From a virus (lineage: Duplodnaviria; Caudoviricetes): a stretch of DNA of 64,000 bases. Position numbers and translations under genes: made by a program. The stretch is from the IMG/VR virus record IMGVR_UViG_3300025314_000006. One strand, 5' to 3'. Position 1 is the stretch's first letter. Each line of letters starts with the position of its first letter. Under the pieces are notes generated by a model. It was not told where the DNA came from, ran no database searches, and saw nothing but the letters and a program-made list of their open reading frames with translations. Shown here one piece after another: positions 2,394-59,457 of the stretch.

Positions 2394-2469
2394 AGGATAA
2401 GAAGAGAATTAAACTCCTGTTAAATATGTTTTGCAGACATATCCCGATTTCAACATTGGGTACTTATCC
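2394..2469 (-). tRNA. tRNA-Cys(GCA)
   Basis: GGATAAG/CTTATCC acceptor, U73; ATATGT-CT GCA AA-ACATAT anticodon arm. Confidence 0.85.
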
Positions 2470-2482
2470 TTGTAAAAATTAA

Positions 2483-2754: not shown

Positions 2755-2758
2755 CTTG

Positions 2759-2830
2759 AGGCTCCACTGACAATCGATGTCAGGACTCAAATTTACAAGA
2801 TTCGTGTTTTGCCACTTAAACTACGGAGCC
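2759..2830 (-). tRNA. tRNA-Thr(TGT)
   Basis: GGCTCCG/TGGAGCC acceptor; loop CT TGT AA; atypical T-loop ATCGATT. Confidence 0.85.
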
Positions 2831-2846
2831 ATTATTTGTTCTTATG

Positions 2847-2920
2847 TGGAATCTACCGGCATTGAACCGGTCTCTCAGGCGTGCAAGGCAAGTGTTCTAA
2901 GCCAAATGAACTAAGACCCC
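2847..2920 (-). tRNA. tRNA-Ala(TGC)
   Basis: GGGGTCT/AGATTCC acceptor with G3:U70; loop CT TGC AC; two mismatches in the anticodon stem. Confidence 0.8.
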
Positions 2921-2958
2921 AATTTAATTTGTTCAAAGTACAAATTATTAAAAACTTT

Positions 2959-3034
2959 TGGCGAGTATGACCGGTCCTGACCCGGCGACCTCCTCATAGA
3001 CAGTGAGGCATTCTTCCAACTGAACTACACACTC
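2959..3034 (-). tRNA. tRNA-Asp(GTC), CCA encoded
   Basis: CCTCA-CT GTC TA-TGAGG; G73; T-loop GTCAGGA. Confidence 0.85.
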
Positions 3035-3046
3035 ATTATTTTTTAA

Positions 3047-3355
3047 AAAAGTAAGACGCCATTTCGCTGATAGCGTTTTTTGTGTTCTGTTTAATGCGCC
3101 AAAGAACATCTGATTATGTTCAGCATTTAGCGTTCATGCTTGGTTATTATAACATACTAACATTCCTAATATTGTCTGATTACCTATTTTGAGTTTGCAT
3201 AGTAGGTTGATTTTTATTTCCAGGGTAAAAATCAACAAACAAACCTAACGTCTGATAAACTTTATTTTTCATCCGGTAAACGTTTTGTACATTGTTTAGT
3301 TCATTAGGCTAAAACAACACGTCTTTTTCACGGACAACATTAGTAACTTACTTTT
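3047..3355 (-). ncRNA. Unassigned structured RNA (~309 nt) between tRNA-Ile and tRNA-Asp
   Basis: 9-bp closing stem AAAAGTAAG/CTTACTTTT; 11-bp hairpin at 3206-3236; several smaller hairpins; four ATCAG motifs; no ORF in the track. Confidence 0.55.
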
Positions 3356-3359
3356 CTTG

Positions 3360-3433
3360 TAGTGCATCTGAGAATTGAACTCAGTACTTCCACGTTATCG
3401 GCGTGGCACTCTGGACCGATGAGTTAATGCACT
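3360..3433 (-). tRNA. tRNA-Ile(GAT)
   Basis: AGTGCAT/ATGCACT acceptor; CCACG-CC GAT AA-CGTGG (C33 instead of U33). Confidence 0.85.
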
Positions 3434-3447
3434 GTTTTTATTTAAAG

Positions 3448-3520
3448 TCTAGGTGGCCTGCTCCGACCAGGCGGTCTCCAGTTCCCAAAACTGGCGGATT
3501 TCCAACTTTCCCACACCTAG
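3448..3520 (-). tRNA. tRNA-Pro(TGG)
   Basis: CTAGGTG/CACCTAG acceptor; CCAGT-TT TGG GA-ACTGG; T-loop GTCGGAG. Confidence 0.85.
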
Positions 3521-3558
3521 AAATTTTGTTTATCTTTCCAAACTGTCTTTTAATAAGA

Positions 3559-3621
3559 GTTCAAGCTCGGTTATCCACCGATTCGAAGGACTGCATTAGC
3601 CTTCTCTGCAGACACTTGAAC
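3559..3621 (-). ncRNA. Compact structured RNA with an H-type pseudoknot
   Basis: GTTCAAG/CTTGAAC closing stem; interleaved CTGCA/TGCAG and GAAGG/CCTTC helices; TCGG-TGGATAA-CCGA hairpin. Confidence 0.5.
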
Positions 3622-3623
3622 AT

Positions 3624-3699
3624 TGGAGCGAAAAACCAGGTTCAAACTGGCGACCCCCAGAGTGGAAATCTGGCGCTCTATCAACTGAGCTATTTTCGC
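3624..3699 (-). tRNA. tRNA-Gly(TCC), CCA encoded
   Basis: GCGAAAA/TTTTCGC acceptor, U73; CCAGA-TT TCC AC-TCTGG. Confidence 0.9.
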
Positions 3700-3788
3700 T
3701 TATGTATATAATTCTCTCAGACCATATTACCAAGATTTACTTTGGACTCACCGTATTTTAAAAGTGAGCAGAATTGTATTTAATTAAA

Positions 3789-4736
3789 TTATTCTAATAA
3801 TAATTCATCAATTGTTAAAATTGAATTTAAATTATCTATTGTTTTTTTAAATATCATTTTAACATTAATGTTGTTTTGTTCTAATACTAAACTCATTTTT
3901 GTTTTATCTATTATTGAATAATATCCTTTAGTTTCTATGTATAAGTTAAAATTTGGCAAATAAAAATCTGGCACATACGTTTTTTCAACACCTTCTTTAA
4001 TATATTGAATATATATTTTTCTAATCCACAATATTTTATTGTCATTTAACCATTGCGACATTTTTAATTCATATTTTCCTCTTAAAGAATATTCTTCACC
4101 AATAATATTTTTTTGTTTATAAAATTTCACATGTTTAAAATTGTTACTTATTTCATTTTCTTCTAACATCTTGGAGTGAGATTTGCTAATTTTCGATTTT
4201 TGTTCAGAAGAAAGTGGCTTTCCTAATTGGTGATGTATTCTCTTACCAGTAGCATACATTTCTTTTTGTTGCTCAGATGCTTTATTTACCCTATTATCAG
4301 TTTCCTTTGTAAGTCCTCTTGACCATCCCATTTTTGATTTAGTCTCTGCATTACTGTATTTTTTATTTTTATATTCAACTCCATCCGGTGTATGCATTTG
4401 AAATATATGACCACATATACCAAGTTTGTGAAATATTAATTCGCAATGAGGACATTTATATTTATCTACATCAACTTTCCAAGATTCATCTACTGTTATT
4501 TGTTTTTTATTAACTGTATTACATTTATTATAATGCCTTTCAAAATTAGAAACAGAAATATTTTTATTACATTTATCACAACATTTTGTGTTTTTAGGTT
4601 TTCCAAGTAAAGAAATACTTAAATTTTTTAATCTTTCTTTTAACTTTGGATTAGATTCACAATTTACTATATGAGCACCAAATTGTTGTGGGATCTCAAA
4701 CTCAAAAGACTCTTTGCAATGCGGACAAGTTTTCAT
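3789..4736 (-). CDS. Putative homing endonuclease (Zn fingers, NUMOD-like region, PD-(D/E)xK C-terminal domain)
   Basis: CPHC zinc motifs; HHQLGKPLSSEQKSKIS NUMOD3-like stretch; YVPDFYLP...YIETKGY nuclease motif. Confidence 0.75.
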   Translation of the reverse strand: MKTCPHCKESFEFEIPQQFGAHIVNCESNPKLKERLKNLSISLLGKPKNTKCCDKCNKNISVSNFERHYNKCNTVNKKQITVDESWKVDVDKYKCPHCELIFHKLGICGHIFQMHTPDGVEYKNKKYSNAETKSKMGWSRGLTKETDNRVNKASEQQKEMYATGKRIHHQLGKPLSSEQKSKISKSHSKMLEENEISNNFKHVKFYKQKNIIGEEYSLRGKYELKMSQWLNDNKILWIRKIYIQYIKEGVEKTYVPDFYLPNFNLYIETKGYYSIIDKTKMSLVLEQNNINVKMIFKKTIDNLNSILTIDELLLE

Positions 4737-10133: not shown

Positions 10134-11147
10134 TTGGAAAATAAGTTAAGAAAATATATTCAAAAAATCCTTCAAGAATCTTTAAATACAGAAGACATTC
10201 CTGAAGACATCCCCATTAAAAAAGATTTAAAATTCACTGAGACCTCAAGAGGTTCGCATCATGGCCAGCAGGATTTAACAGCTTATGCCACAATAGAGGG
10301 AATAGTAGTTGGCTATGTTGAATATTCTATATTTCAGAACGAAATCCACATAGAAATGATTGAAGTTGTTGAAGAACAAAAAAGACAAGGAATAGCAACA
10401 AAATTATTTCATTTTATAAGACTTAAAAATTCTGGTATGAAAATTATTCCAGGATATTCAACCGAAGAAGGAAGTAAATTTTATAATGCTTATAAAAGCA
10501 AAAAACTAAAAGAAGATATAAATGTTCCTATAAATGTTGGAGATACCGTTCTTGGTGGCCGTTTTAAAAATAAAAAAATTATTATTAAAGATATAGGAAA
10601 GTCAGATAAGGGCGACATTACAATTAATGACAAGCCTCTTTTAAAAGTTAGGATTCCAAAGAAAATAAATGAAGAAAAATTGACATGTTTATATATTCAT
10701 GGTTTAGGAGCTGAAATATCTGATGATATTAAAAATTCTCTTTCCAAATACAATCTCATATATCCCAAAATAAACTACGACAAAACAACAAAACCATATT
10801 ATCAATGTTTAGAAATATTAAATAAAGATAAGGTGGATTTTATAATAGGTCATTCTATAGGTGGAGTTATGGGTTATTATTTAGCTAAAGAAACAAATAT
10901 TCCAGCTTTATTATTATGTCCGGCATTTGGAGATGAATATAAAGTTCTCACAAGTAAGTTAGTTAAAGATAATAACCCAAAAATAGTTGTTATCATAGGA
11001 AAAAAAGATGATGAAGTTGATAATAAAAAAGTTAAATCCACTTTAGAAAATCAACCCAATTGTGTTATTAAAGAATTAAATATCGGACATGATATTACAG
11101 AAAAAAATCTGATTTTATTTGCTGATGGTTTTGTTGAAAATTTATAA
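10134..11147 (+). CDS. Multidomain protein: GNAT, small module, alpha/beta-hydrolase (YqiA-like)
   Basis: KRQGIATKL GNAT motif; YIHGLG and GHSIGG nucleophile elbow; domains separated by KLKED and KINEE. Confidence 0.75.
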   Translation: MENKLRKYIQKILQESLNTEDIPEDIPIKKDLKFTETSRGSHHGQQDLTAYATIEGIVVGYVEYSIFQNEIHIEMIEVVEEQKRQGIATKLFHFIRLKNSGMKIIPGYSTEEGSKFYNAYKSKKLKEDINVPINVGDTVLGGRFKNKKIIIKDIGKSDKGDITINDKPLLKVRIPKKINEEKLTCLYIHGLGAEISDDIKNSLSKYNLIYPKINYDKTTKPYYQCLEILNKDKVDFIIGHSIGGVMGYYLAKETNIPALLLCPAFGDEYKVLTSKLVKDNNPKIVVIIGKKDDEVDNKKVKSTLENQPNCVIKELNIGHDITEKNLILFADGFVENL

Positions 11148-11174
11148 TTGAAATTATTATTTTTTAATATAAAG

Positions 11175-11247
11175 TGCTTCCAGTTGGACTTGAACCAACG
11201 ACCCGAAAATTAAGAATTTCCTACTCTACCATCTGAGCTATGAAAGC
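11175..11247 (-). tRNA. tRNA-Lys(CTT)
   Basis: GCTTTCA/TGGAAGC acceptor; loop TT CTT AA. Confidence 0.85.
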
Positions 11248-23405: not shown

Positions 23406-24269
23406 TTATAATTTAGAATATTCCCATTTAAATCCACCAGCAGTATATTTATTATTTTTTAAACATTTTGATATTTGTTTTCTTGAAACATTTAATGTTT
23501 CAAAAGCGTTTTTTATACTTCTAAAACAATTTATAAAAACACCATTTTTATCCAATTGATTTATTTTCTTGGTATTTTTTGGAATATTTCCAATTCTTTT
23601 ATATGGCTCAAAAATAAAATTTTTAATTTCACATTCATAACACCAATAAAAACCTCCGGCACTTTTTCCATTTTTTTTACAACACCTACTTAATGATGAG
23701 TTATTTATTCCTGTTATATATTCAGCCTCTGTTAGTGATTTGAATTTTTGTATTATTTCTCCAGTTTTTATATTAATCTGTATTATCCCTTTAAAAAAAT
23801 TTTCATTTTTCTGACCAAGATGAGATTCTCTTAAATTTTCAATATGAGAATCTGAAAAAATAATTCCTTTTTTATTATCTGACATTAATTTTTTTGTTTC
23901 CTCAGAATGTTTCCTGTTTGTACTTGAAATTGATATTCTCTTTTTTGTTTCTTCGGAGTGTTTAAAATTTATAGCCCCTGTTCCTTTCGCATTTGCATTA
24001 ACAAGTTTAAAACCCCATACTTTAAATTGGCAAATCCAATATTGCTCCCAAAATTCCCAATCATTATTATCTACAATATCTAATATTTCGAAAATTGGAA
24101 ATAATTTCTGTTTCCGCAATGATTTAATCCAATTAACTCTATAACTTCTTCCTTTTTTGTCTTTTTTGTGAGAGCGAAACCTAACCTTTGGATTAATTGT
24201 TTTTCCAACATATCTCACTTGTTGAGTATTGGGGTCAGTCAAAGTGTATATATAACAAAGATTATCCAT
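23406..24269 (-). CDS. GIY-YIG homing endonuclease with NUMOD3/NUMOD1 motifs
   Basis: YIYTL...RYVGKT; KHSEETKK repeats; KSAGGFYW and TAGGFKW. Confidence 0.85.
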   Translation of the reverse strand: MDNLCYIYTLTDPNTQQVRYVGKTINPKVRFRSHKKDKKGRSYRVNWIKSLRKQKLFPIFEILDIVDNNDWEFWEQYWICQFKVWGFKLVNANAKGTGAINFKHSEETKKRISISSTNRKHSEETKKLMSDNKKGIIFSDSHIENLRESHLGQKNENFFKGIIQINIKTGEIIQKFKSLTEAEYITGINNSSLSRCCKKNGKSAGGFYWCYECEIKNFIFEPYKRIGNIPKNTKKINQLDKNGVFINCFRSIKNAFETLNVSRKQISKCLKNNKYTAGGFKWEYSKL

Positions 24270-27603: not shown

Positions 27604-27634
27604 ACAATTTTGTTATAATTCCGTTTAAACAACT

Positions 27635-28237
27635 ATGAGTCAGCCGGCAATTAAAGAAAAACAAGAAAAAGTTAAGAATACGCCATGGACAAACATTGGT
27701 ATAAAGGTGGATTTGTGTTCATTTTTGACGAGGAAAGTATTAACTGAAAAGTTTTCTCCTCAAAAAGCTAAAAAAATAGAAATGCGTAATTTCTTTATTT
27801 CGAAGATTGATGGGTGTGAATTATACGTGAATGATATCTATCCTGATTACATATTTTACATTAAAAATATCAATGGAAATAATGAGATTTTAATGGAAAA
27901 AAGTGAAAAAAACAAGACGTTTTATATAAAATATACCGGTATTTGGTCAGTTTTCGAGAGCCTGTACCTACTTGAATACTCTGATATTCAATCATTTACA
28001 CAGATTGCCCTTGAAGAGCTCCTAAAATTACAAGGGTATAAAACTCTCCGCGGGATTCAATGCGTACATTACGGCCTTGAAGAGCTCCTAAAATTACAAG
28101 GGTATAAAACACGGCATCGGGGACAGGCTATTTTGCAAGTCCTTGAAGAGCTCCTAAAATTACAAGGGTATAAAACTGATTGCCCTACAACAATACTTTT
28201 TCCTTCCCTTGAAGATGGTCTAAAATCTAACGATTAA
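27635..28237 (+). CDS. Array-associated protein, paralog 1; reads in frame through the whole mini-array
   Basis: Repeat translates as LEELLKLQGYK three times; high identity to 46803-47249. Confidence 0.7.
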   Translation: MSQPAIKEKQEKVKNTPWTNIGIKVDLCSFLTRKVLTEKFSPQKAKKIEMRNFFISKIDGCELYVNDIYPDYIFYIKNINGNNEILMEKSEKNKTFYIKYTGIWSVFESLYLLEYSDIQSFTQIALEELLKLQGYKTLRGIQCVHYGLEELLKLQGYKTRHRGQAILQVLEELLKLQGYKTDCPTTILFPSLEDGLKSND

Positions 28238-28242
28238 AAAAC
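28009..28242 (+). CRISPR. CRISPR-like mini-array 1: three identical 36-nt repeats, one degenerate terminal repeat, three 30-nt spacers; no cas genes adjacent
   Basis: CCTTGAAGAGCTCCTAAAATTACAAGGGTATAAAAC at 28009, 28075 and 28141; degenerate copy at 28207-28242. Confidence 0.75.
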
Positions 28243-38803: not shown

Positions 38804-39241
38804 TTAATTACGATTTCTAATTTGAGCTTCCATAGTTAACGCCTTAATGCCGGATTTTATATTTGCGTTATTTTCATCTTCTATTTGTATATCTATTTTT
38901 GAAGTGTCAAAGATCATTCTTAACGAATATCCATCTTCTCCATTTCTGTTTTTTAAAACCATCATTGTGGCTTTCTTAATAACTTTATCCTCATCTGGTC
39001 TCGCAATTCCTAAAATAATATCAGCTGTTTGTGCTTTACCAAGGCTTTCAGAGATTGTATCGAGACCGAACTTGTCTTTATTCATTGAACTATTATGAGT
39101 GTAAATGTCATTTGCAAAAAACATATGTGCATCCTCCACTGTTATATCAACAGTTTCTTCTTCTCCAATTAATTCTATGGACATTATTTCATCTTCTAAA
39201 ATGTCTATTATTGACTCACTTACTATATTCTGTTTTTTCAT
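38804..39241 (-). CDS. dnaB: Split DnaB helicase, C part: IntC (50 aa) plus C-extein
   Basis: ...DITVEDAHMFFANDIYTHN|S splice junction at 39092/39091, followed by ISESLGKAQTAD...KNRNG. Confidence 0.88.
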   Translation of the reverse strand: MKKQNIVSESIIDILEDEIMSIELIGEEETVDITVEDAHMFFANDIYTHNSSMNKDKFGLDTISESLGKAQTADIILGIARPDEDKVIKKATMMVLKNRNGEDGYSLRMIFDTSKIDIQIEDENNANIKSGIKALTMEAQIRNRN

Positions 39242-40472
39242 TTTTTATAAAATTTATACATTTTTCTATTATTTGTTTTTTGTCGTTTTTATAATCTAAC
39301 TCTGGTATTCTTAACACTTCATATCCTTTACTAATTAAAAAACAATCTCTCAAAATATCTCTTTCTTTTTGTTTCGTGGATGAATGCCAAAAATCACCAT
39401 CAAATTCTATTATTTTATTTTCAAATTTAAAATCCACACTTATAACATATATATCATTTTGATATGTATAAAAAACATGTTCCTCATTAAGTTCTGCAAA
39501 ATAACATTTACTTTTTTCGAATTCATCAATTTGTTCATATATGCTCCAAAACAATTCTTGTGATATTTTACTATAATTTTTTAAAAATCTTCCATTAATA
39601 ATAAGCTGTGTAAATCGTTCTTGTCTTTTTATGGGACCAACAATTGGACCATACCTTTCTATATAACCCTCAACAGAATTTGAATAAGAAACTTTTTTAC
39701 AATATTCTTCGTATCTTTTTTTGCCATCAACCTCACCGTATCTTTTTTTAAATGCTTTTAAACTTGTTTTATCCATTGATTTGCAATATTTTTCATATTC
39801 ATCTTTACCTTTTTCTTCGCCATGCTTTTCAATATACGTTTCAAGAGAATTCCTTTTTGACATTCTAATTGAATTTTCATTCCAAATTCTTGTACCTTCT
39901 TCTTCTCCATATATCTCAATGCGCCTTTCTAATGTGGACCCATTTTTCCAATCTCCTTTTTCTTTTTTCTTTTGAATTCCGACTCTCCATTTCTCTAAAT
40001 AAGAATTCCATCTTTTTAAACCCTCTTCTTCTCCATATCTTTCGGTCATTATTTCTAATGATACACTTCTTTTACTTTTTCTAATTTCATCCCAAATTTT
40101 ATTACCCTCATCTTCTCCTAATTTAACAATAAGTTTTTCAAGAGTGACAACACATTTTTCATTTTTTTCATCAAATTGCTTTTGACCCTCAACCTCTCCA
40201 TATCTTAATATGAAAGATTCTAATGATGATGAATTTCTATTAAATTTTTCTTTTATTAATTTTATTCTCGTTATCCAATCACATTCTATATTATTTATTA
40301 TAAAGTCTACTATTAATTTAAAATTGTTATGTATAAAAATTTTATTAAATTCTTCTATAATATTTGTTAATTGTTCTTTTTGAAACTCATTAATTTTATT
40401 AACATCTAAACATTTTAAAGATTTAATATTTAATAATTCTTCTATTGTTTTAAACTTTTTTATTTTTTCCAT
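39216..40472 (-). CDS. Free-standing endonuclease between the split intein halves
   Basis: Repeated (R/K)YGEEEG motifs; C-terminal IIEFDGDFWH...RD Vsr/DUF559-like domain. Confidence 0.8.
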   Translation of the reverse strand: MEKIKKFKTIEELLNIKSLKCLDVNKINEFQKEQLTNIIEEFNKIFIHNNFKLIVDFIINNIECDWITRIKLIKEKFNRNSSSLESFILRYGEVEGQKQFDEKNEKCVVTLEKLIVKLGEDEGNKIWDEIRKSKRSVSLEIMTERYGEEEGLKRWNSYLEKWRVGIQKKKEKGDWKNGSTLERRIEIYGEEEGTRIWNENSIRMSKRNSLETYIEKHGEEKGKDEYEKYCKSMDKTSLKAFKKRYGEVDGKKRYEEYCKKVSYSNSVEGYIERYGPIVGPIKRQERFTQLIINGRFLKNYSKISQELFWSIYEQIDEFEKSKCYFAELNEEHVFYTYQNDIYVISVDFKFENKIIEFDGDFWHSSTKQKERDILRDCFLISKGYEVLRIPELDYKNDKKQIIEKCINFIKNEKTEYSK

Positions 40473-40515
40473 ACATATAAATAGTATGAAAATAAAATTT
40501 TGAGAGCGACACAAA

Positions 40516-41865
40516 CTACTTTTTAGAAAATAAAAAATCTCCTTTTGATAATCCGCTTTCTATAGATTTATATTCATTATTTTTTATTGGAAAAAAATGT
40601 TTTGAAGAACATAATATTTCCTTTCCGCTTTTTAGTTTAATTTTATACACACTTTGTTTTTCAATTGGGAAAATATTAATTACTTTTTTAAAACCAAGAT
40701 GTGTCAAAATTAAATCATTAACTTTTAAGTATTGTATTTCTTTTTTACCATCTGGAGTATCAATTAGAGAATTTAACCCTAAACATCTTCCACTCTGAGA
40801 AGCTGTCCAGATTGGAATATTCATTTCCATTGCCATTCCTCTCAGACCTTCATAAATTGAAGTCAGTGCAAATCTTTTTTCTGAAAAACTTGATGTAGCC
40901 TTCATTATGTCAGCATAATCAATAATAATTACATCTGGCACAATACCTTCTCTTTCTAAAACTTTAAGATGCGATTTAATAGTATTTAAAGACGCTGAAC
41001 CAGTTGGAAATTCCTTAATTATAAGATTTCCACCTTGTTTTGAAATTTCTAAAAGAGTTTCTCTTATTACATCAGGATATTCAATAACATCTTTTAAAGG
41101 TAAACCGGTTAAACACGAATCTATTCTATTGCCAATAGCACTTTCCTGTAACTCGAGTGTATAATATATTACTTGTTTTCCTGCCTTTAATGCAGTACAC
41201 GCAAATTTTACTAACATCATGGATTTTCCTCCACCAGTTGGAGAAAGTATAATTCCAAGCTCTCCACCAGCAAGACCTCCACCTATTTTTGAATCAAGAC
41301 CACTCATTGCCGGAATTGGAGTTCTATATTTTTTTATTAATCTCTTTTCCATATCCTTAAGATAATTGTGACCACTACTTTTTGGCTCACCAACCTTAAG
41401 CGCTTCGGAAATTATTTGAGCTATATTTTCATAATCTCCCTTTTCCCAATTATCAACAGCATCAATAAGTCCCTTTTTTAACGATTGTTTACGACAAAAA
41501 TTTAAAGCAATATCTTTTACATTAAGCTTATCAGTAATTCTCTGTTCTTCAATAAGCCGGATTAATTCAATGAGATTGTCTTTTAATTGTCCTTCGAGTT
41601 CTTTTTCGTTTACTATATCTCTAAGAGTTTGATATTCTGGTATAATATTGTATTTTGTAACAAAATCAAGAATATGCCTAATTAATGTTTTGATATATAT
41701 ACCATCAAAATATTCCGGCTTTAAAATATCTATAATTTGTGTTGAGAATTCGCCTTGTTTATCTTCTATTATAACTTTGATTAACTTTTTTTGAAAATTT
41801 AAATCCAGTAAGGTAAGGGGCTGATTAACATTTTTTATTGCACTATTAATTTCAGTATTTTCCAT
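40516..41865 (-). CDS. dnaB: Split DnaB/gp41-like helicase, N part: N-extein plus IntN (89 aa)
   Basis: SPTGGGKS Walker A, IIIDYAD, IWTASQSGR|CLGLNS...TPDG...CSSKH; intein starts at Cys codon 40785. Confidence 0.9.
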   Translation of the reverse strand: MENTEINSAIKNVNQPLTLLDLNFQKKLIKVIIEDKQGEFSTQIIDILKPEYFDGIYIKTLIRHILDFVTKYNIIPEYQTLRDIVNEKELEGQLKDNLIELIRLIEEQRITDKLNVKDIALNFCRKQSLKKGLIDAVDNWEKGDYENIAQIISEALKVGEPKSSGHNYLKDMEKRLIKKYRTPIPAMSGLDSKIGGGLAGGELGIILSPTGGGKSMMLVKFACTALKAGKQVIYYTLELQESAIGNRIDSCLTGLPLKDVIEYPDVIRETLLEISKQGGNLIIKEFPTGSASLNTIKSHLKVLEREGIVPDVIIIDYADIMKATSSFSEKRFALTSIYEGLRGMAMEMNIPIWTASQSGRCLGLNSLIDTPDGKKEIQYLKVNDLILTHLGFKKVINIFPIEKQSVYKIKLKSGKEILCSSKHFFPIKNNEYKSIESGLSKGDFLFSKK

Positions 41866-43466: not shown

Positions 43467-44624
43467 TTAACTTCTTTTGATATTAGATTCTTTGAAAGTA
43501 TAATTTTGAAACTTTTCTTCATATTTTTCAGTGAAAGTGATGATTTTCTCATCATGTAATTTTTGTAATTCTTCAAAAGAAATTTTATCTATATCTATCA
43601 GTTCGTATGTAAAATTATTAAGTTCACAAAATTTTTCAGCAGCCAATTTTTTAGCAAGAACAGCTGGAGAATTATGTAATTTTTGTGGTTTACATTCAAT
43701 TATTCGTTTACCTTCAATTACAAAATCAGGAAAATAATTTCTTGTTTCACCAGTATAATCAATGTATTCGATTTTATATTTTTGAGATTCTCCTGTTTCC
43801 CATTTTAATTCTTCTTTTTCTATAACATTAATCATATAAGACAATTCTCTTAAACTTCTGAAAAACCAATTTTTATACCAACCAGACCAACCGTTACCGG
43901 AGCCATTTGGAGATGGTTTTCCAAACATTGGATTATTTTCTCCAGACGAATTTTTGCTTTGCAATTTTAACCACTCGTCATTTCTTTTATTTCCTTCTTC
44001 TTCTCCTAATTTTTTTATCCAAATATCTTTCAGAGTCCCTCTACCAAATGCTGGATTGTTTTCACCAGAAAGTTTTTCACTTATTTTTTTTCTAAACTCG
44101 TCTGTTTGTTGTCGCTCTTGAAAATTTGCCCAAGATTCTGATGTTTGATGTGAATTTTGTATTTTATTTATAGTTTCTTGTGAATGTGTTTTTCCATAAA
44201 ATGAATTTTTATCTCCTTTACTACCACAAGATTTACATAATCTTTTTTCTTTTTCAGCCTCATCTCTATCAAATTTTGCGACATATGATATTTCTTCTAC
44301 ACACTCTGGACAGTTTCTGTAATATTTTTGTTCTTTTTTATTTTTATAAAATTCTTTAATTAAAGGCTGTATGGATTTTACGAACTTTTCCCAACGCGCT
44401 CCATTTTTTTGAAATAAAATTATTATTTTATCATTTGTATCTGCGTCAAATTTGTGAAGATAAACTTCTTTCATCTTAATTTCATTTTCTTCAAAAAACC
44501 TATTATTAACACATTTTCTACAGAGTTTTTTCTTTCTTTCAGAATTGTTTCTGTTTTTTTTATTTGTGTAATAAATATTTTCATTACATTGAGGACAATT
44601 TCTTTCAAATTTTTCTTTTTCCAT
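43467..44624 (-). CDS. Putative homing endonuclease (NUMOD3 plus TnsA-like PD-(D/E)xK)
   Basis: FYGKTHSQET, GENNPMFGK, YFPDFVI...IIECKP. Confidence 0.8.
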   Translation of the reverse strand: MEKEKFERNCPQCNENIYYTNKKNRNNSERKKKLCRKCVNNRFFEENEIKMKEVYLHKFDADTNDKIIILFQKNGARWEKFVKSIQPLIKEFYKNKKEQKYYRNCPECVEEISYVAKFDRDEAEKEKRLCKSCGSKGDKNSFYGKTHSQETINKIQNSHQTSESWANFQERQQTDEFRKKISEKLSGENNPAFGRGTLKDIWIKKLGEEEGNKRNDEWLKLQSKNSSGENNPMFGKPSPNGSGNGWSGWYKNWFFRSLRELSYMINVIEKEELKWETGESQKYKIEYIDYTGETRNYFPDFVIEGKRIIECKPQKLHNSPAVLAKKLAAEKFCELNNFTYELIDIDKISFEELQKLHDEKIITFTEKYEEKFQNYTFKESNIKRS

Positions 44625-45768: not shown

Positions 45769-46104
45769 TTATTCATTAATCTTTGGTTCGAATTTTACCC
45801 AGTCAAGACTTTTGTCATCTTTTGTTGTTAAGTACACCACGCTGGTATCTTTCTTTTGCTTTCCGAAATTCAAAGTTGACTTACATTTTTTACATCTCAC
45901 ATAAGCATATTCAAAATTATCTTCTTTCGTTACATGACCATGCAAGAACAAGTCATCATTTCCACATATTCCACATGTGTCAACGTCTCCAAATGATAAT
46001 TTTGAAGACTCTATTACCACCTCATGAAAAGAAGGTGCGGACAACATAAAAGTATAGACATTCTTGCCTATCTTTTTTTTAACAACCATTTCAATTTTTG
46101 CCAT
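45769..46104 (-). CDS. Zinc-finger hypothetical protein
   Basis: CGIC...CKKC. Confidence 0.6.
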   Translation of the reverse strand: MAKIEMVVKKKIGKNVYTFMLSAPSFHEVVIESSKLSFGDVDTCGICGNDDLFLHGHVTKEDNFEYAYVRCKKCKSTLNFGKQKKDTSVVYLTTKDDKSLDWVKFEPKINE

Positions 46105-46250
46105 TTTATTATTTTAACCGGATAAGACCAGATTTTACATATGCAAATAAAACGAGTAGAAACATAAAAAGCAAGTTACATCACATTATTATTAAATTTA
46201 TTTTAAATGCGTTGTGTTTACTTTTTAAAAATAAAGTTTTTTATTACATA

Positions 46251-46766
46251 ATGGCAATACCAAAAATTAACAGATTTAATTCCAAGCCATTATATTATCT
46301 TCAAATGCTACATGAAGGAAATATTTTCACTTGGAAGATTGAGAACTTTACAATAACATCAACTCCTCGTTTTAATTTTATTTCAACAAATTTTGCCGAA
46401 GTTTCACATAAGGATGAAAATATTATAGAATTGGAATTAAATGCAGAATCATACTTAAATGATACACTTTTAACCAGAATTGTACTTGTAGAAAAAATTG
46501 GTAATAAAAAAGTAGAAATAGGAGACCCTTTGATAAGATGGGCACTTCATGATTTACAAAAAATTCCTTTTATAAATACAAGAGATTTTTTAATTAAAAC
46601 ATTAATAGAATCACCAGTGGAAAGAAAAATATTTTTAGAACAATGTGTATTGTTAAAATACCAGACATCAGATTTATGTGATTACAACCTTGAAGAACAG
46701 TTTGAACAAGTTCCAACCATTATAAAACTTAAATTAAAACCAAAAATCATAATGCAATATCCATAA
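46251..46766 (+). CDS. Hypothetical protein
   Basis: Likely start MAIPK at 46251. Confidence 0.55.
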   Translation: MAIPKINRFNSKPLYYLQMLHEGNIFTWKIENFTITSTPRFNFISTNFAEVSHKDENIIELELNAESYLNDTLLTRIVLVEKIGNKKVEIGDPLIRWALHDLQKIPFINTRDFLIKTLIESPVERKIFLEQCVLLKYQTSDLCDYNLEEQFEQVPTIIKLKLKPKIIMQYP

Positions 46767-46802
46767 CTACAACAAATGATAGGATTTTTCGTTTAAACAG
46801 TT

Positions 46803-47249
46803 ATGAAACAATCAACAATCAAAGAAAACCAAGAAAAAATAAAGGATACACCATGGACAAAACTTGGGATAAAGGTAGATTTATGTTCGTTTTTGACGAG
46901 GAAAGTGTTGGTTGAAAAGTTTTCTCCTCAAAAAGCTAAAAAAATAGAAATGCGTAATTTCTTTATTTCGAAGATTGATGGGTGTGAATTATACGTGAAT
47001 GATATCTATCCTTATTACATATTTTACATTAAAAATATCAATGGAAATAATGAGATTTTAATGGAAAAACATGAAAAAAGCAAGACGTTTTGCATAAAAT
47101 ATGATGGCATATGGTCAGTTTTTGAGAGCTTGTACATGCTCCAATATGATGAGATTCAGTCATTTACACAGATTACCTTTGATGAGCTCCTAAAATTACA
47201 AGGGTATAAAACCTGTCTTTTGATTTTCCCTGTTAATTGTTTTCTTTGA
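46803..47249 (+). CDS. Array-associated protein, paralog 2; ends just inside repeat 2 after a 31-nt spacer shifts the frame
   Basis: ...SFTQITFDELLKLQGYKTCLLIFPVNCFL*. Confidence 0.7.
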   Translation: MKQSTIKENQEKIKDTPWTKLGIKVDLCSFLTRKVLVEKFSPQKAKKIEMRNFFISKIDGCELYVNDIYPYYIFYIKNINGNNEILMEKHEKSKTFCIKYDGIWSVFESLYMLQYDEIQSFTQITFDELLKLQGYKTCLLIFPVNCFL

Positions 47250-47414
47250 TGAGCTCCTAAAATTACAAGGGTATAAAACAAAGGTGTTGCAAGATCAAAT
47301 CGTAAAATACTTTGATGAGCTCCTAAAATTACAAGGGTATAAAACGAGACCAGTTATCCGGGCAGGAAGCATAAATGACTTTGATGAGCTCCTAAAATTA
47401 CAAGGGTATAAAAC
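47177..47414 (+). CRISPR. CRISPR-like mini-array 2: four identical 36-nt repeats, spacers of 31, 30 and 33 nt; no cas genes adjacent
   Basis: CTTTGATGAGCTCCTAAAATTACAAGGGTATAAAAC at 47177, 47244, 47310 and 47379. Confidence 0.8.
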
Positions 47415-47420
47415 TTAATT

Positions 47421-49097
47421 TCAAAAATTTGTAAAATCAACCTCTCCTTCTGCTATTCCGCATTCATATAAATTACTACCTTCTGAGGAACCTACTTGGA
47501 GGGAAATATTTGTAAAATCCGACAGAACACTCTTAATTTCTTCAATTATACTAAATTCTTCTGGATGAACATCAATTATGAAAGAGTCGTGTACCTGAAA
47601 TATAAATTTTGATTTTTTGTCTGCAAAAAACTTTCTTATAAGATAAAGTTTTTCTACCAAAATATCAGCAGCCATGGCTGATATAAAATTACTAAATGTA
47701 GCCCATGTTTTTTGTGGCTTAACAATGGTACTAAAACTATTTACTATATATCCTAATTCGTCATAAGAACATTGTATTTGTTTTGAAAATTCTATAATTG
47801 GGTTTAAAAATTCTCTCACTCTTAAAATTGCATCATTAACATCCGGAACTTCTTTTAATATTTTTTTTAACACTTCTTCTCCTCCACCATAAATTAATGT
47901 ATGATTAATAGATTTGCCAATAGAGCGTTCTTTTGCATTCACTTTTTTATTCTTAAAAATAACTTTTGCAGTTTCTTCATGCAAATCTTTATCTTTAAAT
48001 TTTTTTATAAAATCCTTATCCTGAGAAAAGAATAAAGCTAATTTTGTTTCAAAAGAAACATAATCCAATACAACTATTTTTCCGCCCTTAAATCTTGAAA
48101 CAATCATTTTTCTATCATTACTATCCTTTGCTAACATTTGAGGGTTAAACCTTCTATCAACACAGTTTATACGTCCAGTTATTGTTCTTTTATTGGAATA
48201 CAGCAATCTTACATATTGCATTCCATCAGAAGTCTTTTTAAAGTCTATTTTTTCATTTTCATATTTTTTATCGAAAAACAACTCTCTTTTAGAGAGCCAG
48301 TCAGTTATGATGTCTTTTTTATTTAATCTAATGATGTATGATTTTTCATGGTCAGTTATTTCCTGTCTTTTATATAATTCATGCATAACAAATGGAATAA
48401 ACCGGTCAGATTCAGTATCCATAATAAAATCATAGAAGTATTTCTCGGATATTTCTTCAAAATATCTTGACCAAAAAAGATTTTCTATAGTTTCAAAAAA
48501 CGGTTCATGCTTTTCTGTTAGATATGGGCTTACATTAGAATAACTTAAACAAATTGGAGAGTATTTTTCAATAATAGAAGTAACTGATTTTCTTATATCC
48601 ATTCCAAAATATCTCATGCTTTCAAGATTTATTCCTATTATTTTTTTGCAATCTTCTGAATTATACAAGTACATGGCCTTACCAGAAAAATATGCATAAA
48701 ATTTATATGGTTTAATAAAGTTTTTTTCCAAAAACTTGGATAATTTTCCATCCAAAATACAGTCATATGTAATGTATGTATCTGGCAACCAGTTTGATAT
48801 TATGTTCTTTATAAAGGTTTTTGTGTTTAATATAGTGTTCGACTTTTCTTCGGAAGTGCTGTAAGCCCAAGAAATGTTATTTGAAATTTTGTGCTGAGAA
48901 ACTCTCTGAGCCGGAAATAACTTTTTTACATATTCCCATCCAACTATTATAGTTGGTACATTTTCTTCTTCAATTTTTTTTTCAATGTCACAAAGAATAA
49001 TATCGACTCCAGAAGTAGAAAACTCCAAGCTAAATGCCAATAAATCCTCTTCTAAAAAAGTAAGTATTTTGCATATTTTTATTTCTTTGTTTAACAT
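47421..49097 (-). CDS. polA: Family A DNA polymerase (polymerase domain)
   Basis: TITGRI, motif A LDYVSFE, motif B GKSINHTLIYGG, motif C QVHDS. Confidence 0.8.
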   Translation of the reverse strand: MLNKEIKICKILTFLEEDLLAFSLEFSTSGVDIILCDIEKKIEEENVPTIIVGWEYVKKLFPAQRVSQHKISNNISWAYSTSEEKSNTILNTKTFIKNIISNWLPDTYITYDCILDGKLSKFLEKNFIKPYKFYAYFSGKAMYLYNSEDCKKIIGINLESMRYFGMDIRKSVTSIIEKYSPICLSYSNVSPYLTEKHEPFFETIENLFWSRYFEEISEKYFYDFIMDTESDRFIPFVMHELYKRQEITDHEKSYIIRLNKKDIITDWLSKRELFFDKKYENEKIDFKKTSDGMQYVRLLYSNKRTITGRINCVDRRFNPQMLAKDSNDRKMIVSRFKGGKIVVLDYVSFETKLALFFSQDKDFIKKFKDKDLHEETAKVIFKNKKVNAKERSIGKSINHTLIYGGGEEVLKKILKEVPDVNDAILRVREFLNPIIEFSKQIQCSYDELGYIVNSFSTIVKPQKTWATFSNFISAMAADILVEKLYLIRKFFADKKSKFIFQVHDSFIIDVHPEEFSIIEEIKSVLSDFTNISLQVGSSEGSNLYECGIAEGEVDFTNF

Positions 49098-54096: not shown

Positions 54097-57000
54097 TTAT
54101 TTTATTCTTGCTTGATAGAATCCTCCAATATCGTCAGCGAGAGGAGCATTACTTCCACTTGTAGACTCACCCCAATTTCCGACTATGTTGAAACTCAGGG
54201 TCGCAACACACCACATAGGCTGAACTCGGCCACCAGAGCCATCTATAGACCAAGGTGAGTCATCATATGAAAACGAAATATTATTTATAATAACATCATA
54301 GTTGAACCAATCACCTAATTTTAAATGACTTACAGGTGGATATGTAAAAGAAAATCCTTTGCCAGAAGTATTTCTTGATGGTCTAGTAAGTTTGGATAAA
54401 AATTCCATTCTTGTTAAGAAATCTACTTTATCACCGGAAAAGAAAGCTGGCTGAAACATAAGATCTTTTTTCATTTCTTTTAATCTTTCTTTGGTTTCCT
54501 TAGTTTTTAAAGAAATGTCCCCAGAAGAATTAGTTTCTTCTCCACCTTTAATTAATTCTCTATAAATTTTTCCACCTTCATCTCCATATTTACGATTTCC
54601 CACATTTGAAGAATTATCTTTTTGTTTAGCTTCTAAATTTGAAATTTCGGAATTCAATTCACTTATTTGAGATTTTAAAGTAGAAGTGTTTCCAACATCA
54701 TCAGATGCTATAGCTAATAATTGAGCGTTATATTCAGATATTTGTTTCTTCTTATTTTTTATTTCTACTTCAATATTATCATTTGCTGTATTTATTCCAT
54801 TTTCCGATTCAAAATGTTTACTAAAAGTTTCTGAATATGTTGTTGAATCTTCCCAATTAACACCAACATCAACAGTTTGAGAATAATCAGTTAAAACAAA
54901 AAAGGATATGGAGCCTTCTCTATTTGAATTAGAATAAGTATAAATTGGCTCCGGTCTTCCAAGAAAATCTACCTTATTCCAATTTGCACTATCGCTATTT
55001 GAAAAAGACTTAACATATGGAGGAAAACTCATTGTATGATTAAGAGTAGAATCCCCATTTTGAATAGCGTAATTTTTTATTCTCAATTCAAGGGTCCCAG
55101 CATCTTTACTTGGTTTATAGGGATTGGCTATTGTATATCTGGCATAAGCTTTTTTAGCATTTGGGTCAGCACTAATTAAAAATTTTTTAGTTCTTTGATT
55201 ATAATTTTTAGATAAATCTATTCCTTCTGTTCCGGGAGCATTCTTTATTGTATTTATAATATGAGTAACGCCTCTTTCATGTTTATTAAAATCAACAGCA
55301 ATTGCATCTCCTGGAACTGTGTTTGACATCATAGAAATAGCCGTTCCTATTTCTCCATTTGTTGGTTTTAACAATTGTGTAACAGGAGATATTCCATCAG
55401 AATATTCCCCCGGAGATTGTAATCCTACATATGTTCCACCCTTAGCGCTAACTACTCCTGCTGGAGTTGAATTAGTAGATAATACTTTTTCGTTTTTAAG
55501 CGTACTGTTAGATAATGATAACAGCTCTTTAAACCCTCCAGCGTTATGTCCATTTAATATACTGTATCCATCTAATAAATCATCATATCTATTCCTGAAA
55601 ACATTTTTCTGTAAATTATAAAGTTGAGCAGCATTGGTTATTTTCGCTAAAGGAATTCCAGAATCTGGTTTTGTTTCAAGCCCATAAATTGGTTTTAAAT
55701 TTTTGGTTGCGTCAAGTATTGTTCCTTTAAATTTCATAAGCTCTCTTATTGGAGCGCTCATAATTTCTAAATTAGATACACCTACAAATGTGCTTGTTCC
55801 TCCCATCATTAAAGAAGTACCAAGACCATTAGAATTTCCATTTTTTGTTAATAAATTATGTCTAGTAGCATTTGCAATAGTTATTATAGTATTTGGTCTA
55901 TCAACATTTTTAGATAATAGAGAATTTCTTGTACCTACAGAATCAGATTCTAAGCTTAAATATTGAGGAACATTTGCTGATAATAAATCATTTCTTATAC
56001 TTAATGAATTCTGATCTAAATCAATATTATTTACGACATTACTCGCCAATAATGCATTTCTTGAAATTAGTGCATCTCCATCTAAATCAATAACTACAGG
56101 AACGTTTGCAGCAAGAAGAGCTCCTCTCGGAACCGCAGATAAAACATCTAAATCTGTATTTGACGGAACATTACTAGATAATAATGTGTCTCTTAGAATT
56201 ATTGAATTAGCGTCCAAATCAATATTGTTTGGTACATTGCTTGCCAATAATGAATCTCTTGGAATTACTGAATTTGCGTCTAAGTCAATATTATTTGGAA
56301 CATTACTTGCTAATAGCGTGTTTCTTGGAGCAGTTGAGTTCGCATCTAAATCGATATTCACTGGAACGTTGTTTGCCAATAATGTATTTCTCGGAACAGT
56401 TGAGTTTGCATCTAAATCTATATTCGCTGGAACGTTACTTGATAACAAATTTTCTCTTGCAGTTGTTGAGTTAGAATCTAAGTTAGTATTCGCTGGCACA
56501 TTACTTGCTAATAATGAATCTCTTGGAACAGTTGAGCTTGCATCTAAATCTATATTCGCTGGAACGTTACTTGATAACAAATTTTCTCTCGTAGTCGTTG
56601 AGTTCGAATCTAAATTAACATTCGCTGTCACATTTGCTGAAAGTAATCCATCTCTTGTAATTGTTGAGTTCGCGTCTAAATTAACTTTTGACGGCACATT
56701 TGATGATAGTAAACTTTCTCTTGTTACTGTCGACTTTGAATCTAAATTAATATTCGGTGCCACATTTGATGACAATAAACTATCTCTTGTAGCTGTTGAA
56801 TTTGCGTCTAAATTAGCACTTATAGGAACATTTGACGACAACAAACTATCCCTTGAGATTGTTGAGTTTGCGTCTAAATCAATTTTTGATTGTACATTTG
56901 ATAACAACAAGCTATCCCTTATGGCGGTTGAATTTGCATCTAAGTCAATTTTTTTAGATACATTACTCGATAATAAATTATCTCTTGTAGAAACTGCAGA

Positions 57001-57747
57001 TAAATCAAGATTTATGTTTTTCTCTATATTTTTAAATTCCTGAGCTTCTCTGAACTGGGATGAATCTTTGTCGATATCAATTTTACCTTCAATATTTTTA
57101 GATAAGGAAGCATTTCTTAATTTTAAAGACTCATTATCAATATTGATGTTGGACTTAATATTTGAGCCCAACATTTCTTCTCTTGTTGATATTGCTTTTG
57201 ATTCTAAGTCTAAATTAGCCGGCACATTGCTCGATAATAAATTCTCTCTTACGCTAACAGATTTATCATCAAGATTTATCTTTTTCTCTACGTTATGAGA
57301 AATATTTGAATTTCTTGCATCTTTTGATTGAATATCTAAATTTGTTTCATGAGGAATGTTTTTTGATAATAGATTTTCTCTCACTGAGTCAGATAACTCT
57401 TCTAATCCAACAGAAGATTTAAGTAAACTATTTTTTGAAATTTGTGATTGTCTATAATTTTCTCCAGATATGTCTAAATCGATTTGTTTTTCTACATGTT
57501 TAGAAATCATTGTATTTCTGATGTTTGTAGAATTTTCATCAAGATTCGCTGTAAAAGTTGACTCGTTTTTTGCGAGCATTGTTTTTCTCGTTTCTGTATA
57601 CAAAACATCATAAAGATTCTCCGGCCTCTTTACGTTTTTTGACAAAAGGGTTTTTCTAACTTCAGCAGAATATTGTCCAAAGAAGTGTTCTAACTTCTCA
57701 CGAGCTTGTTGTTCTTCAAATGTTTCGTCATAATATTCTGTTGACAT
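54097..57747 (-). CDS. Baseplate/tail-tube-initiator-like protein with ~27 tandem 22-aa repeats
   Basis: C-terminal SFPPYVKSFSNSDSANWNKVDFLGRPEPIYTY motif; N-terminal LLSSNVPANIDLDANSTxxR repeats. Confidence 0.65.
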   Translation of the reverse strand: MSTEYYDETFEEQQAREKLEHFFGQYSAEVRKTLLSKNVKRPENLYDVLYTETRKTMLAKNESTFTANLDENSTNIRNTMISKHVEKQIDLDISGENYRQSQISKNSLLKSSVGLEELSDSVRENLLSKNIPHETNLDIQSKDARNSNISHNVEKKINLDDKSVSVRENLLSSNVPANLDLESKAISTREEMLGSNIKSNINIDNESLKLRNASLSKNIEGKIDIDKDSSQFREAQEFKNIEKNINLDLSAVSTRDNLLSSNVSKKIDLDANSTAIRDSLLLSNVQSKIDLDANSTISRDSLLSSNVPISANLDANSTATRDSLLSSNVAPNINLDSKSTVTRESLLSSNVPSKVNLDANSTITRDGLLSANVTANVNLDSNSTTTRENLLSSNVPANIDLDASSTVPRDSLLASNVPANTNLDSNSTTARENLLSSNVPANIDLDANSTVPRNTLLANNVPVNIDLDANSTAPRNTLLASNVPNNIDLDANSVIPRDSLLASNVPNNIDLDANSIILRDTLLSSNVPSNTDLDVLSAVPRGALLAANVPVVIDLDGDALISRNALLASNVVNNIDLDQNSLSIRNDLLSANVPQYLSLESDSVGTRNSLLSKNVDRPNTIITIANATRHNLLTKNGNSNGLGTSLMMGGTSTFVGVSNLEIMSAPIRELMKFKGTILDATKNLKPIYGLETKPDSGIPLAKITNAAQLYNLQKNVFRNRYDDLLDGYSILNGHNAGGFKELLSLSNSTLKNEKVLSTNSTPAGVVSAKGGTYVGLQSPGEYSDGISPVTQLLKPTNGEIGTAISMMSNTVPGDAIAVDFNKHERGVTHIINTIKNAPGTEGIDLSKNYNQRTKKFLISADPNAKKAYARYTIANPYKPSKDAGTLELRIKNYAIQNGDSTLNHTMSFPPYVKSFSNSDSANWNKVDFLGRPEPIYTYSNSNREGSISFFVLTDYSQTVDVGVNWEDSTTYSETFSKHFESENGINTANDNIEVEIKNKKKQISEYNAQLLAIASDDVGNTSTLKSQISELNSEISNLEAKQKDNSSNVGNRKYGDEGGKIYRELIKGGEETNSSGDISLKTKETKERLKEMKKDLMFQPAFFSGDKVDFLTRMEFLSKLTRPSRNTSGKGFSFTYPPVSHLKLGDWFNYDVIINNISFSYDDSPWSIDGSGGRVQPMWCVATLSFNIVGNWGESTSGSNAPLADDIGGFYQARIK
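55838..57650 (-). repeat. Coding tandem repeat, 66-nt unit, about 27 copies
   Basis: Units counted in the translation; also produces the antisense shadow ORF 56186-57043. Confidence 0.85.
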
Positions 57748-57968: not shown

Positions 57969-58172
57969 ATGGAAACTATAAAAAAACAAAAAAGAGTTTT
58001 TAACTTTAATTTACCAGATGATCTAAGAGAGTATCTTAAATATAAAGCTAGTTTAAAAAGAACAACAATATCACAACACATTATTGATTTAATTGTTTCT
58101 GATATGGAAATTGAGAAACAAAAAATAACTAAAAATATTAATTGGGGAATAAACAATGAAAGTAAAAACTAA
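57969..58172 (+). CDS. Ribbon-helix-helix DNA-binding protein
   Basis: RVFNFNLPDDLREYLKYKA...TISQHIIDLI pattern. Confidence 0.65.
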   Translation: METIKKQKRVFNFNLPDDLREYLKYKASLKRTTISQHIIDLIVSDMEIEKQKITKNINWGINNESKN

Positions 58173-59457
58173 ATTCACACTAAATGAAGTATTAGACACT
58201 TTAAAAGAAAAGAAACTCAATAGAGACGAGTATTCGTTATTGTATAGTAGCTATGAAACACAGATTGGCAAAGATGGTTATCTGCAATTCAAATTAACAG
58301 AAAAAGATAATTGGAAAAATGTTCATACGCTCGTTAATCAATATTTTAATTCGGAAGAGCACGATAAAAAACATATAGAGCTAATAGAAACTAAAATCGA
58401 AAAATGTTTAGTGACTCATCATGTTAATTTTTTTGAGAAAGAAAACAAGATAAATAATCATCCGGATAACTTATTGTGGTTAGGACTGGATGAACATAGG
58501 ATTTTACATGAGAAAATAATGTGTGAGGTAGTTGACAAAATGTGGAATCCCGAAAATACTGAATACTGTAATTTTGAAGTGCAGAGAGAAAAAATAAAAT
58601 TAGCAGCATCTGAAAATGGTAGAAAGCATTTTGAAATATTGTGGCACGGAGAAAATAATGAAGAGTTTAGAGCAAAAATATTACCTATTCTAATCGAAAA
58701 TGGTAAAAAAATAATGAATGAAAATTGGCATGGAGAAAATAGTGAAGTGTTTAGAGAAAAAATGAAATTAATCAAGAGTGAAAACAATTATGAATTATGG
58801 CACGGAGAAAATAGTGAAGTGTTTAGAACTAAAATATTACCTACTCAAATTGAGAATGGGAAAAAAATAATGAATGAAAGATGGCATGGAGAAAATAATG
58901 AAGAGTACAGAAAAAAAATGAAATTAATCCGTAGTGAAAATAATTATGAATTATGGCACGGAGAAAATAATAAAGAGTTTAGAACAAAAATGAAACCATT
59001 TCAAATCGAATCTGGCAAAAAAGTAATGAAGGAATTATGGCATGGAGAAAACAACGAAGAATTCAGAGAAAAAATGTTAACTGTTGCTATAAATAATATT
59101 TCTGAACATAATGATACTTTTTGGAATGGTGAAGATAATAAATTAAGAAGAAAAGAGCAGAGCGAAAGAATAAAGGGAATATCAGAAAATTTTTGGTACG
59201 GAGAAAATAATGAAGAAAATCGTAAAAATCATGCAGAGAGATTGTCGAAAAGAAATGCTGACCCAGAACATAAACGAAAAGTAATAGAAGGTAAGATATT
59301 TAAAATTTTCAAAAAAATATTAGAAGCAGGAGAAGAAATCTCAAATGAAACTTTCATTAAATACAAATTTAATGGAGCTCCATACCCAATAACTGTTTTT
59401 GGTTCTATAGAAATTGCTATAGAAAAACTAAAAGATTATCATGAAAAGGTTAAATAA
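58156..59457 (+). CDS. HNH-type endonuclease with tandem WHGEN repeats
   Basis: VTHHVNFFEKENKINNHPDNLLWL...EHRILH; 6 near-perfect and 3 degenerate WHGENxExFR repeats. Confidence 0.7.
   Translation: MKVKTKFTLNEVLDTLKEKKLNRDEYSLLYSSYETQIGKDGYLQFKLTEKDNWKNVHTLVNQYFNSEEHDKKHIELIETKIEKCLVTHHVNFFEKENKINNHPDNLLWLGLDEHRILHEKIMCEVVDKMWNPENTEYCNFEVQREKIKLAASENGRKHFEILWHGENNEEFRAKILPILIENGKKIMNENWHGENSEVFREKMKLIKSENNYELWHGENSEVFRTKILPTQIENGKKIMNERWHGENNEEYRKKMKLIRSENNYELWHGENNKEFRTKMKPFQIESGKKVMKELWHGENNEEFREKMLTVAINNISEHNDTFWNGEDNKLRRKEQSERIKGISENFWYGENNEENRKNHAERLSKRNADPEHKRKVIEGKIFKIFKKILEAGEEISNETFIKYKFNGAPYPITVFGSIEIAIEKLKDYHEKVK

Follow-up and report, generated by a model that had tools for sequence, protein, structure and literature searches.

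A conserved coding gene as leader of phage CRISPR-type mini-arrays, with its last twelve codons as the first repeat

We describe a CRISPR-type mini-array of a phage in which a conserved coding gene stands in the position of the leader, and the last 12 codons of this gene are the first repeat. A non-coding leader is generally taken to be a requirement of CRISPR arrays, and searches for them normally look between genes; in this case a gene takes the place of the leader, and the first repeat codes for protein. A literature search did not turn up any account of a gene-array fusion or of a first repeat that lies within a gene. The DNA analysed is a 64-kb stretch (64,000 nt, hereafter the window) of RIF_PHAGE_CU_29_17, a 503-kb groundwater and Rifle sediment phage, and the arrays of this phage are already on record as CRISPR arrays (Al-Shayeb et al. 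2020, PMC7162821). We think it probable, though far from certain, that a protein-coding gene serves here as the leader of a CRISPR-type mini-array of the phage, which grows by an integrase-type reaction and carries its guides on the mRNA of the gene.

Anatomy and surroundings of the cassettes

Cassette 2 (46803-47414, plus strand, as are all of its parts) consists of a 137-codon gene running into four identical 36-nt repeats. The core of the gene starts with the ATG at 46803, extends to about 47213-47215 and ends in FDELLKLQGYKT, and it is this C-terminal stretch, codons 126-137, that constitutes repeat 1 (47177-47212). The array repeat, CTTTGATGAGCTCCTAAAATTACAAGGGTATAAAAC, recurs as exact copies in repeat 2 (47244-47279), repeat 3 (47310-47345) and the last repeat, repeat 4 (47379-47414), with the four starts at 47177, 47244, 47310 and 47379 lying 67, 66 and 69 nt apart. 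The intervening spacers are S2a (47213-47243, 31 nt, gene-proximal), S2b (47280-47309, 30 nt) and S2c (47346-47378, 33 nt). For the repeats of this array and of its paralog, array 1, we obtained 0 matches in 100 shuffles, and none is expected by chance. The first-pass annotation had reported spacers of 31, 30 and 33 nt that break the reading frame, and both the lengths and the effect were confirmed: because the 31-nt spacer shifts the frame, the cassette 2 ORF as read here stops at 47247-47249, within repeat 2, after an 11-aa spacer-coded tail. A TAA in the codon phase of the repeat (47416-47418) is the stop of the gene in the spacer-less allele L054 and yields a 137-aa product.

Array 2 is bounded by a convergent DNA polymerase A-family (PolA) gene on the minus strand (47421-49097), which lies 6 nt past repeat 4, as had been annotated. 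The wider claim that the cassettes are antisense to their neighbours stands for this convergent gene and fails on the other side, where an ORF on the same strand (46098-46766) lies directly upstream of cassette 2. The ORFs upstream of cassettes 2 and 4 were compared as a possible second gene of the module and proved to be unrelated. Directly 5' of the start codon of cassette 2 is the motif TTCGTTTAAACAG (46788-46800, plus strand), which is shared with cassette 1 (27620-27632) and with the cassettes in three other loci (L002, L025 and L028); within the window it occurs only before the two cassettes, apart from one site with a single mismatch at 18186. This motif may be a promoter or a translation signal.

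Cassette 1 (27635-28242, plus strand) carries a paralog of the gene, with 85% identity across the 137 aa and 87% at the DNA level, and both window cassette proteins are encoded on the 503,412-bp contig CACVIJ010000001.1. Array 1 comprises three identical repeats at 28009, 28075 and 28141 (28009-28176), separated by the 30-nt spacers S1a and S1b, and continues with the 30-nt spacer S1c and a terminal degenerate (fossil) repeat at 28207-28242 (together 28177-28242). The three 30-nt spacers keep the frame open, and a 200-aa ORF (27635-28237) passes through the whole array. As originally proposed, the repeats of arrays 1 and 2 differ from each other at positions 2 and 7 only and are homogeneous, as exact copies, within each array. 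The fossil repeat of cassette 1 is 2 nt off the variant of cassette 4 and further from the variant used in array 1 itself.

Array-bearing cassettes number at least four in this phage, and each of them uses a repeat variant of its own. Cassette 3 lies ~6.5 kb past the end of the window (L002; 3-4 repeats), and cassette 4 was found in IMG/VR fragments (L010; 4 repeats), its protein being identical to P0177 of the 503-kb contig; spacers break the frame in both of these cassettes as well. We had considered whether the fragments G001-3 stem from a different phage with an unusually conserved, and hence mobile, cassette, and rejected this since the cassette protein is identical to one on the 503-kb contig. 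Judged by this identity, G001-3 come from the same phage or a near-identical one and cover a different region.

The paralogous cassettes evidently exchange segments, as far as their sequences can tell. The two window genes differ by 1 base over gene nucleotides 111-267 (27745-27901 vs 46913-47069) and at many positions toward both ends, a mid-gene divergence of a single base that fits gene conversion, and in the database alleles P0169, P0172, P0179 and P0180 the gene body comes from one paralog and the tail with its array from another.

The window as a whole is phage-like, with 29% GC, and encodes a UvsX-type recombinase, PolA, ribonucleotide reductase, several homing-endonuclease-type genes and 13 tRNAs. 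The tRNA genes lie in blocks on the minus strand between 1570 and 13804 (Rfam), and they are the only Rfam matches in the window, with nothing on the array. The homing-endonuclease-type genes, at 23406-24269, 39216-40514, 43467-44624 and 40516-41865, have GIY-YIG plus NUMOD, DUF559/MTES_1575 and NUMOD3 matches, and a weak intein-splicing signal was seen at the end of a DnaB-like helicase in the same set of window regions. Cassettes on other contigs (L001, L028) are also near DUF559/Vsr-like genes. Two other ORFs of the window contain tandem repeats. The minus-strand ORF 54097-57747 (1216 aa) has imperfect ones at 56145-56990, with periods of 66, 132 and 198 nt and ~10 copies at 71-77% matches, and looks like a 22-residue-repeat protein; its 66-nt period equals that of the cassettes, perhaps by coincidence. 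The plus-strand ORF 58156-59457 (433 aa, no Pfam match) has tandem repeats at 58612-59079 with periods of 72, 84 and 156 nt.

The protein family that carries the arrays

The cassette gene encodes a real protein, as the first-pass annotation had concluded from synonymous changes between the two cassettes. The gene body is under purifying selection, with a dN/dS of 0.19-0.43 between paralogs and 0.22 between cassettes 1 and 2. In a profile search, the family extends to 394 clusters (50% identity) at E ≤ 0.001, nearly all of them 100-200 aa long. An AlphaFold2 model built from a 137-sequence alignment is confident (pLDDT 87.8, pTM 0.77), an earlier one from 13 sequences having been poor (pLDDT 52). 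In the confident model residues 115-129 make up the last helix and the score is still about 88 at the very end of the chain, so that the residues encoded by repeat 1 (126-137) are predicted to belong to the fold as its last helix and tail.

The fold and sequence gave no lead to a function in the resources searched. Foldseek returned 0 matches at E ≤ 0.001 against the PDB and uncharacterised family members only against AFDB; the best hit in a wide VIA-align structure search had a Z of 4.0, which is noise level; and Pfam, PHROGs, PADLOC and the protein atlas contained nothing for the cassette protein. No nuclease domain is recognisable in its ~137 aa.

The gene-plus-array layout recurs across this large phage gene family. 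Relatives at only 30-50% identity have a similar 12-residue motif at the C-terminus, such as VEEHLKLEGFTP, and this motif recurs in frame in 32 of the 163 family proteins retrieved, 31 of them at a 22-aa (66-nt) period, although this count is inflated because gene callers take the longest ORF. In other phages, a family gene bears four repeats of GGTGGAAACTGATTTAAAATTGGGATCAATCACACC plus a truncated fifth (L058) or four repeats of GTTGTGAGTACACACAATATAGAGGTGAAACACACC (L064). The repeats of such distant relatives differ in sequence and keep the 36 + 30 geometry in arrays of 66-nt period. One family member (L028) has a single repeat, and members without any repeat also exist (G001:2877-3885 and 10872-11225).

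Strain variation, array growth and spacers

Spacer variation among strains, whose absence the first-pass annotation had named as a refuting observation, is present: alleles of cassette 2 have 0, 2 or 3 spacers. At this locus, L054 has one repeat and no spacer between flanks of 1910 and 1540 nt that are 100% identical to the window, the allele represented by the protein P0166 has S2b and S2c and is missing the gene-proximal S2a, and six other contigs match the window exactly, with all three spacers. The alleles of cassette 4 likewise have 0, 2 or 3 spacers, the 2-spacer form again being the one without the gene-proximal spacer. In cassette 3, the gene is identical at protein residues 1-124 and yet is followed by unrelated spacer sets in different strains. 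The alleles differ by whole units, and by these comparisons the content of the arrays turns over faster than point substitutions accumulate. As a separate observation on cassette 3 (L002 3440-3607 vs L001 3440-3541), the 503-kb contig and one JGI contig show four repeats, and four other assemblies show three. The additional unit copies the second spacer exactly, implying a unit duplication or an assembly difference and not a new spacer.

The earlier proposal that each array grew by copying its own first repeat fits these data. A change of spacers at the leader end between close strains, a generic trait of CRISPR arrays, is present at cassettes 2 and 4, where the alleles, few as were sampled, are without exactly the gene-proximal spacer or without all spacers. 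A degenerate terminal repeat, also a generic trait, is present in cassette 1, cassette 2 having four identical repeats. Repeats 1-3 of cassette 1 carry the variant now present at the 3' end of its gene, and together with them the fossil repeat fits the pattern expected if only the first repeat is copied and the last one keeps an older state. From these comparisons the growth of the arrays looks polar, with units added beside the gene. The nested alleles alone are no proof of polar gain, as recombination between repeats 1 and 2 could equally drop the proximal spacer.

We collected 14 distinct spacers, six from the window and eight from related cassettes. They have no similarity to one another, and about half are exactly 30 nt long. 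Their GC content averages ~0.39 and reaches up to 0.53, compared with 29% for the phage and window, and none of the 14 matches the window, the related loci or G001-3 (~170 kb or more of this phage). The higher GC and the absence of a match in the readable ~170 kb of the phage fit a foreign origin of the spacers. INPHARED (50,697 cultured-phage records) had no significant match for any of the 14, including all six from the window, and an exact search of IMG/VR with the cores of five of the six window spacers found no match. According to the supplement of PMC7162821, one spacer of this phage targets a class II (probably glycyl) tRNA synthetase of the host. This published match suggests that the guides act on host genes.

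CRISPR type, proposed mechanism and rival explanations

Array 2 has generic traits of a CRISPR array, namely at least three near-identical direct repeats of 23-47 nt that are evenly spaced (here 4 × 36 nt) and unique spacers of similar length (31, 30 and 33 nt). In place of the non-coding AT-rich leader stands a gene on which purifying selection acts, and repeat 1 belongs to its coding sequence. The combination of a 36-nt repeat with ~30-nt spacers is a class 2-like geometry.

We found no cas gene among the 30 ORFs scanned in the window and no Cas1 in the 106-kb fragment from another part of the phage (G001-3). Table S1 of PMC7162821 lists RIF_PHAGE_CU_29_17 as positive for CRISPR-Cas, Cas1 and Cas2, with cas14K as the interference gene and type V as the type, and the same source gives Bacteroidetes as the best-hit host phylum. 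If the table is right, the Cas1 of the phage sits in the ~300 kb outside the fragments read here. The link between array and cas14K in PMC7162821 is their co-occurrence in one genome. In the fragment analysed here, the cas14K-like gene has the look of a TnpB carried by an IS element, at a distance from any array: its 405-aa product (G001:1334-2551; PF07282 and PF01385, TnpB-type) adjoins an ISL3 transposase, the nearest cassette (cassette 4) is ~71 kb away, no array or anti-repeat lies beside the gene, and the duplex energies of its flanks with the repeats are within background. Nor was there any anti-repeat, as in the tracrRNA of type II arrays, in the form of an antisense match of at least 13 nt in the window or G001-3. 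Just downstream of the cas14K-like gene (region 187-3885 of G001, IMGVR_UViG_3300025319_000008; loci L057 and L029) we observed a 2 × 45-nt tandem repeat (1072-1161), and on its other side three tandem small genes (105, 130 and 101 aa) with no repeat or array. The middle one of these has a weak family match (E 1.7e-5), and all three show, by eye, the family's N-terminal R-x-V/I-L-x-E-K.

The repeat itself bears a modest likeness, at the level of sequence, to the type VI-B repeats of Bacteroidota. It ends in C(C/U)UU...AAAC, with an A-rich centre on the strand of the gene, and its RNA has no stable fold (-2.4 kcal/mol, z 0.2). Against the F. columnare VI-B repeat (Flavobacterium repeats as printed in PMC5395568), variants v1-v3 scored a z of 3.4-4.3 over shuffles and v4 a weaker 2.6, and the corresponding comparison with the II-C repeat gave no signal. 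All nine repeats compared retain two end pairs, and one of these pairs covaries (U-A vs G-C); the repeats of L058 and L064 are nearer to the VI-B ends (GGUG/GUUG...CACC). In Bacteroidota, VI-B (Cas13b) arrays acquire their spacers in trans, by way of the Cas1-Cas2 of another system (bioRxiv 10.1101/092577; PMC8092290). In common with the cassettes they have the 36-nt repeat, the ~30-nt spacers and no adjacent cas1 or cas2, and the host phylum predicted for the phage is likewise Bacteroidota. VI-B repeats are defined by 5'-GUUG and CAAC-3' ends, a poly-U loop and a conserved hairpin (bioRxiv 10.1101/092577), whereas the window repeats are without such ends, poly-U loop or stable hairpin; the window, furthermore, shows no cas13b, and the leader is a coding gene.

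Among the closest known systems are the compact arrays of huge phages in PMC7162821, which are also small and mostly far from cas genes, this very genome included. The searched text and supplements of that paper are silent on arrays that start within a conserved gene, on several dispersed cassettes with their own repeat variants and on membership of the gene in a large family.

On the reading that we favour, a mini-array led by a coding gene, the last 36 bases of the gene (residues 126-137) would double as the first repeat, and new units, each a ~30-nt spacer plus a copy of the repeat, would be inserted beside the gene in the way that Cas1-Cas2 duplicates a leader-proximal repeat. Units would be lost through recombination between repeats, always leaving the gene with one repeat intact, and repeat 1 would be protected because it is part of a selected protein. 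The putative integrase is most likely the phage's own Cas1-Cas2, which the literature reports for this genome, or else that of the host; a host type II or type VI Cas1-Cas2 is unneeded if Table S1 is right on the phage's own Cas1 and Cas2. The array would presumably be transcribed as a 3' extension of the gene's mRNA, and guide RNAs may be released from it by cutting; the class 2 effector that uses them would be a phage protein or an enzyme of the Cas13b kind from the presumed Bacteroidota host.

An alternative that we regard as unlikely is that the cassettes act as a decoy or sink: the repeat at the 3' end of the transcript would be an RNA anti-CRISPR, a mimic that ties up a Cas effector of the host, or the repeat DNA would be a decoy for host Cas1-Cas2, the spacers being targetless by-products in either case. 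Viral solitary repeat units and mini-arrays known as RNA anti-CRISPRs (Racr; Camara-Wilpert et al. 2023, PMC10651486) likewise are CRISPR repeats on a virus without nearby cas genes, and single-repeat alleles are found here too (L054, L028). The decoy explanation agrees with the lack of a target in INPHARED, in the readable part of the phage and, for five of the six window spacers, in IMG/VR, with the very small size at which the arrays stay, with the commonness of spacer-less alleles and with the presence of several repeat variants together in one phage. The viral-repeat survey of PMC10651486 masked ORFs before the search and found no type VI units, and a survey of this kind would miss mimics embedded in genes. 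However, Racr units are non-coding, have their own promoter and match the host repeat at ≥90% (PMC10651486), whereas the cassette repeat is coding and no host repeat for it to mimic was found, its 23-nt core having no exact match in 185,579 species genomes, nor in IMG/VR. In addition, the published host-gene match of one spacer suggests guiding and not inert filler, and the cassette repeat is without the hairpin by which a protein of the Cas6 or Cas13b type usually holds a repeat.

Cas1-Cas2 can integrate off target, and a repeat-like site outside a canonical array can then seed a new array (neo-CRISPR); the omega RNA of TnpB is another precedent, as a guide RNA that overlaps the 3' end of its gene. 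If the 3' end of the cassette gene happened to resemble a CRISPR repeat, occasional off-target integration could have left functionless arrays behind it. The existence of spacer-less alleles, in which the gene works as a 137-aa protein with its own stop, and of family members without an array would be in line with such an accident. We nevertheless find it improbable, as the layout recurs in relatives of 30-50% identity with the 36 + 30 geometry kept despite differing repeats, all four paralogs in one phage bear arrays, and a chance resemblance is not expected to persist so widely. The conservation of the arrangement across a large family and the small protein without a recognisable nuclease domain set the cassettes apart from neo-CRISPR and omega RNA alike.

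Very improbable is a device at the protein level, in which the array would be translated, either as a C-terminal tail of variable sequence or as a domain of 22-residue tandem repeats: the ORF of cassette 1 that is open through all three spacers, the motif in frame in some family proteins (the inflated count given above) and the frame-keeping 30 nt of about half of the spacers speak for it, but the 31-nt spacer of cassette 2 breaks the frame and brings a stop in repeat 2, cassettes 3 and 4 behave likewise, the repeats are identical as DNA and the spacers share nothing, unlike in protein-repeat evolution, and 30 ± 1 nt is the usual class 2 spacer length.

Going beyond the mini-array reading, we offer a more tentative proposal, possible though on the doubtful side, for the family as a whole. 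Gene and array would form one unit of a phage-specific CRISPR subsystem in which the C-terminal coding sequence is a dedicated landing pad for spacers; the dispersed, deletion-proof mini-arrays would record the DNA of hosts or rivals and supply guides or decoys, and the protein would be a new array-associated factor that, for example, marks the integration site or handles the transcript.

Since the first repeat is coding, viral-repeat surveys that mask ORFs (PMC10651486) would miss this whole class of arrays. The finding bears on how phage arrays without Cas genes gain spacers, on the purpose of phage spacers against host genes and on the birth of new arrays. If the arrays act as guides or decoys, huge phages would have a CRISPR layer of their own, one that is dispersed, renews itself and is independent of a cas locus.
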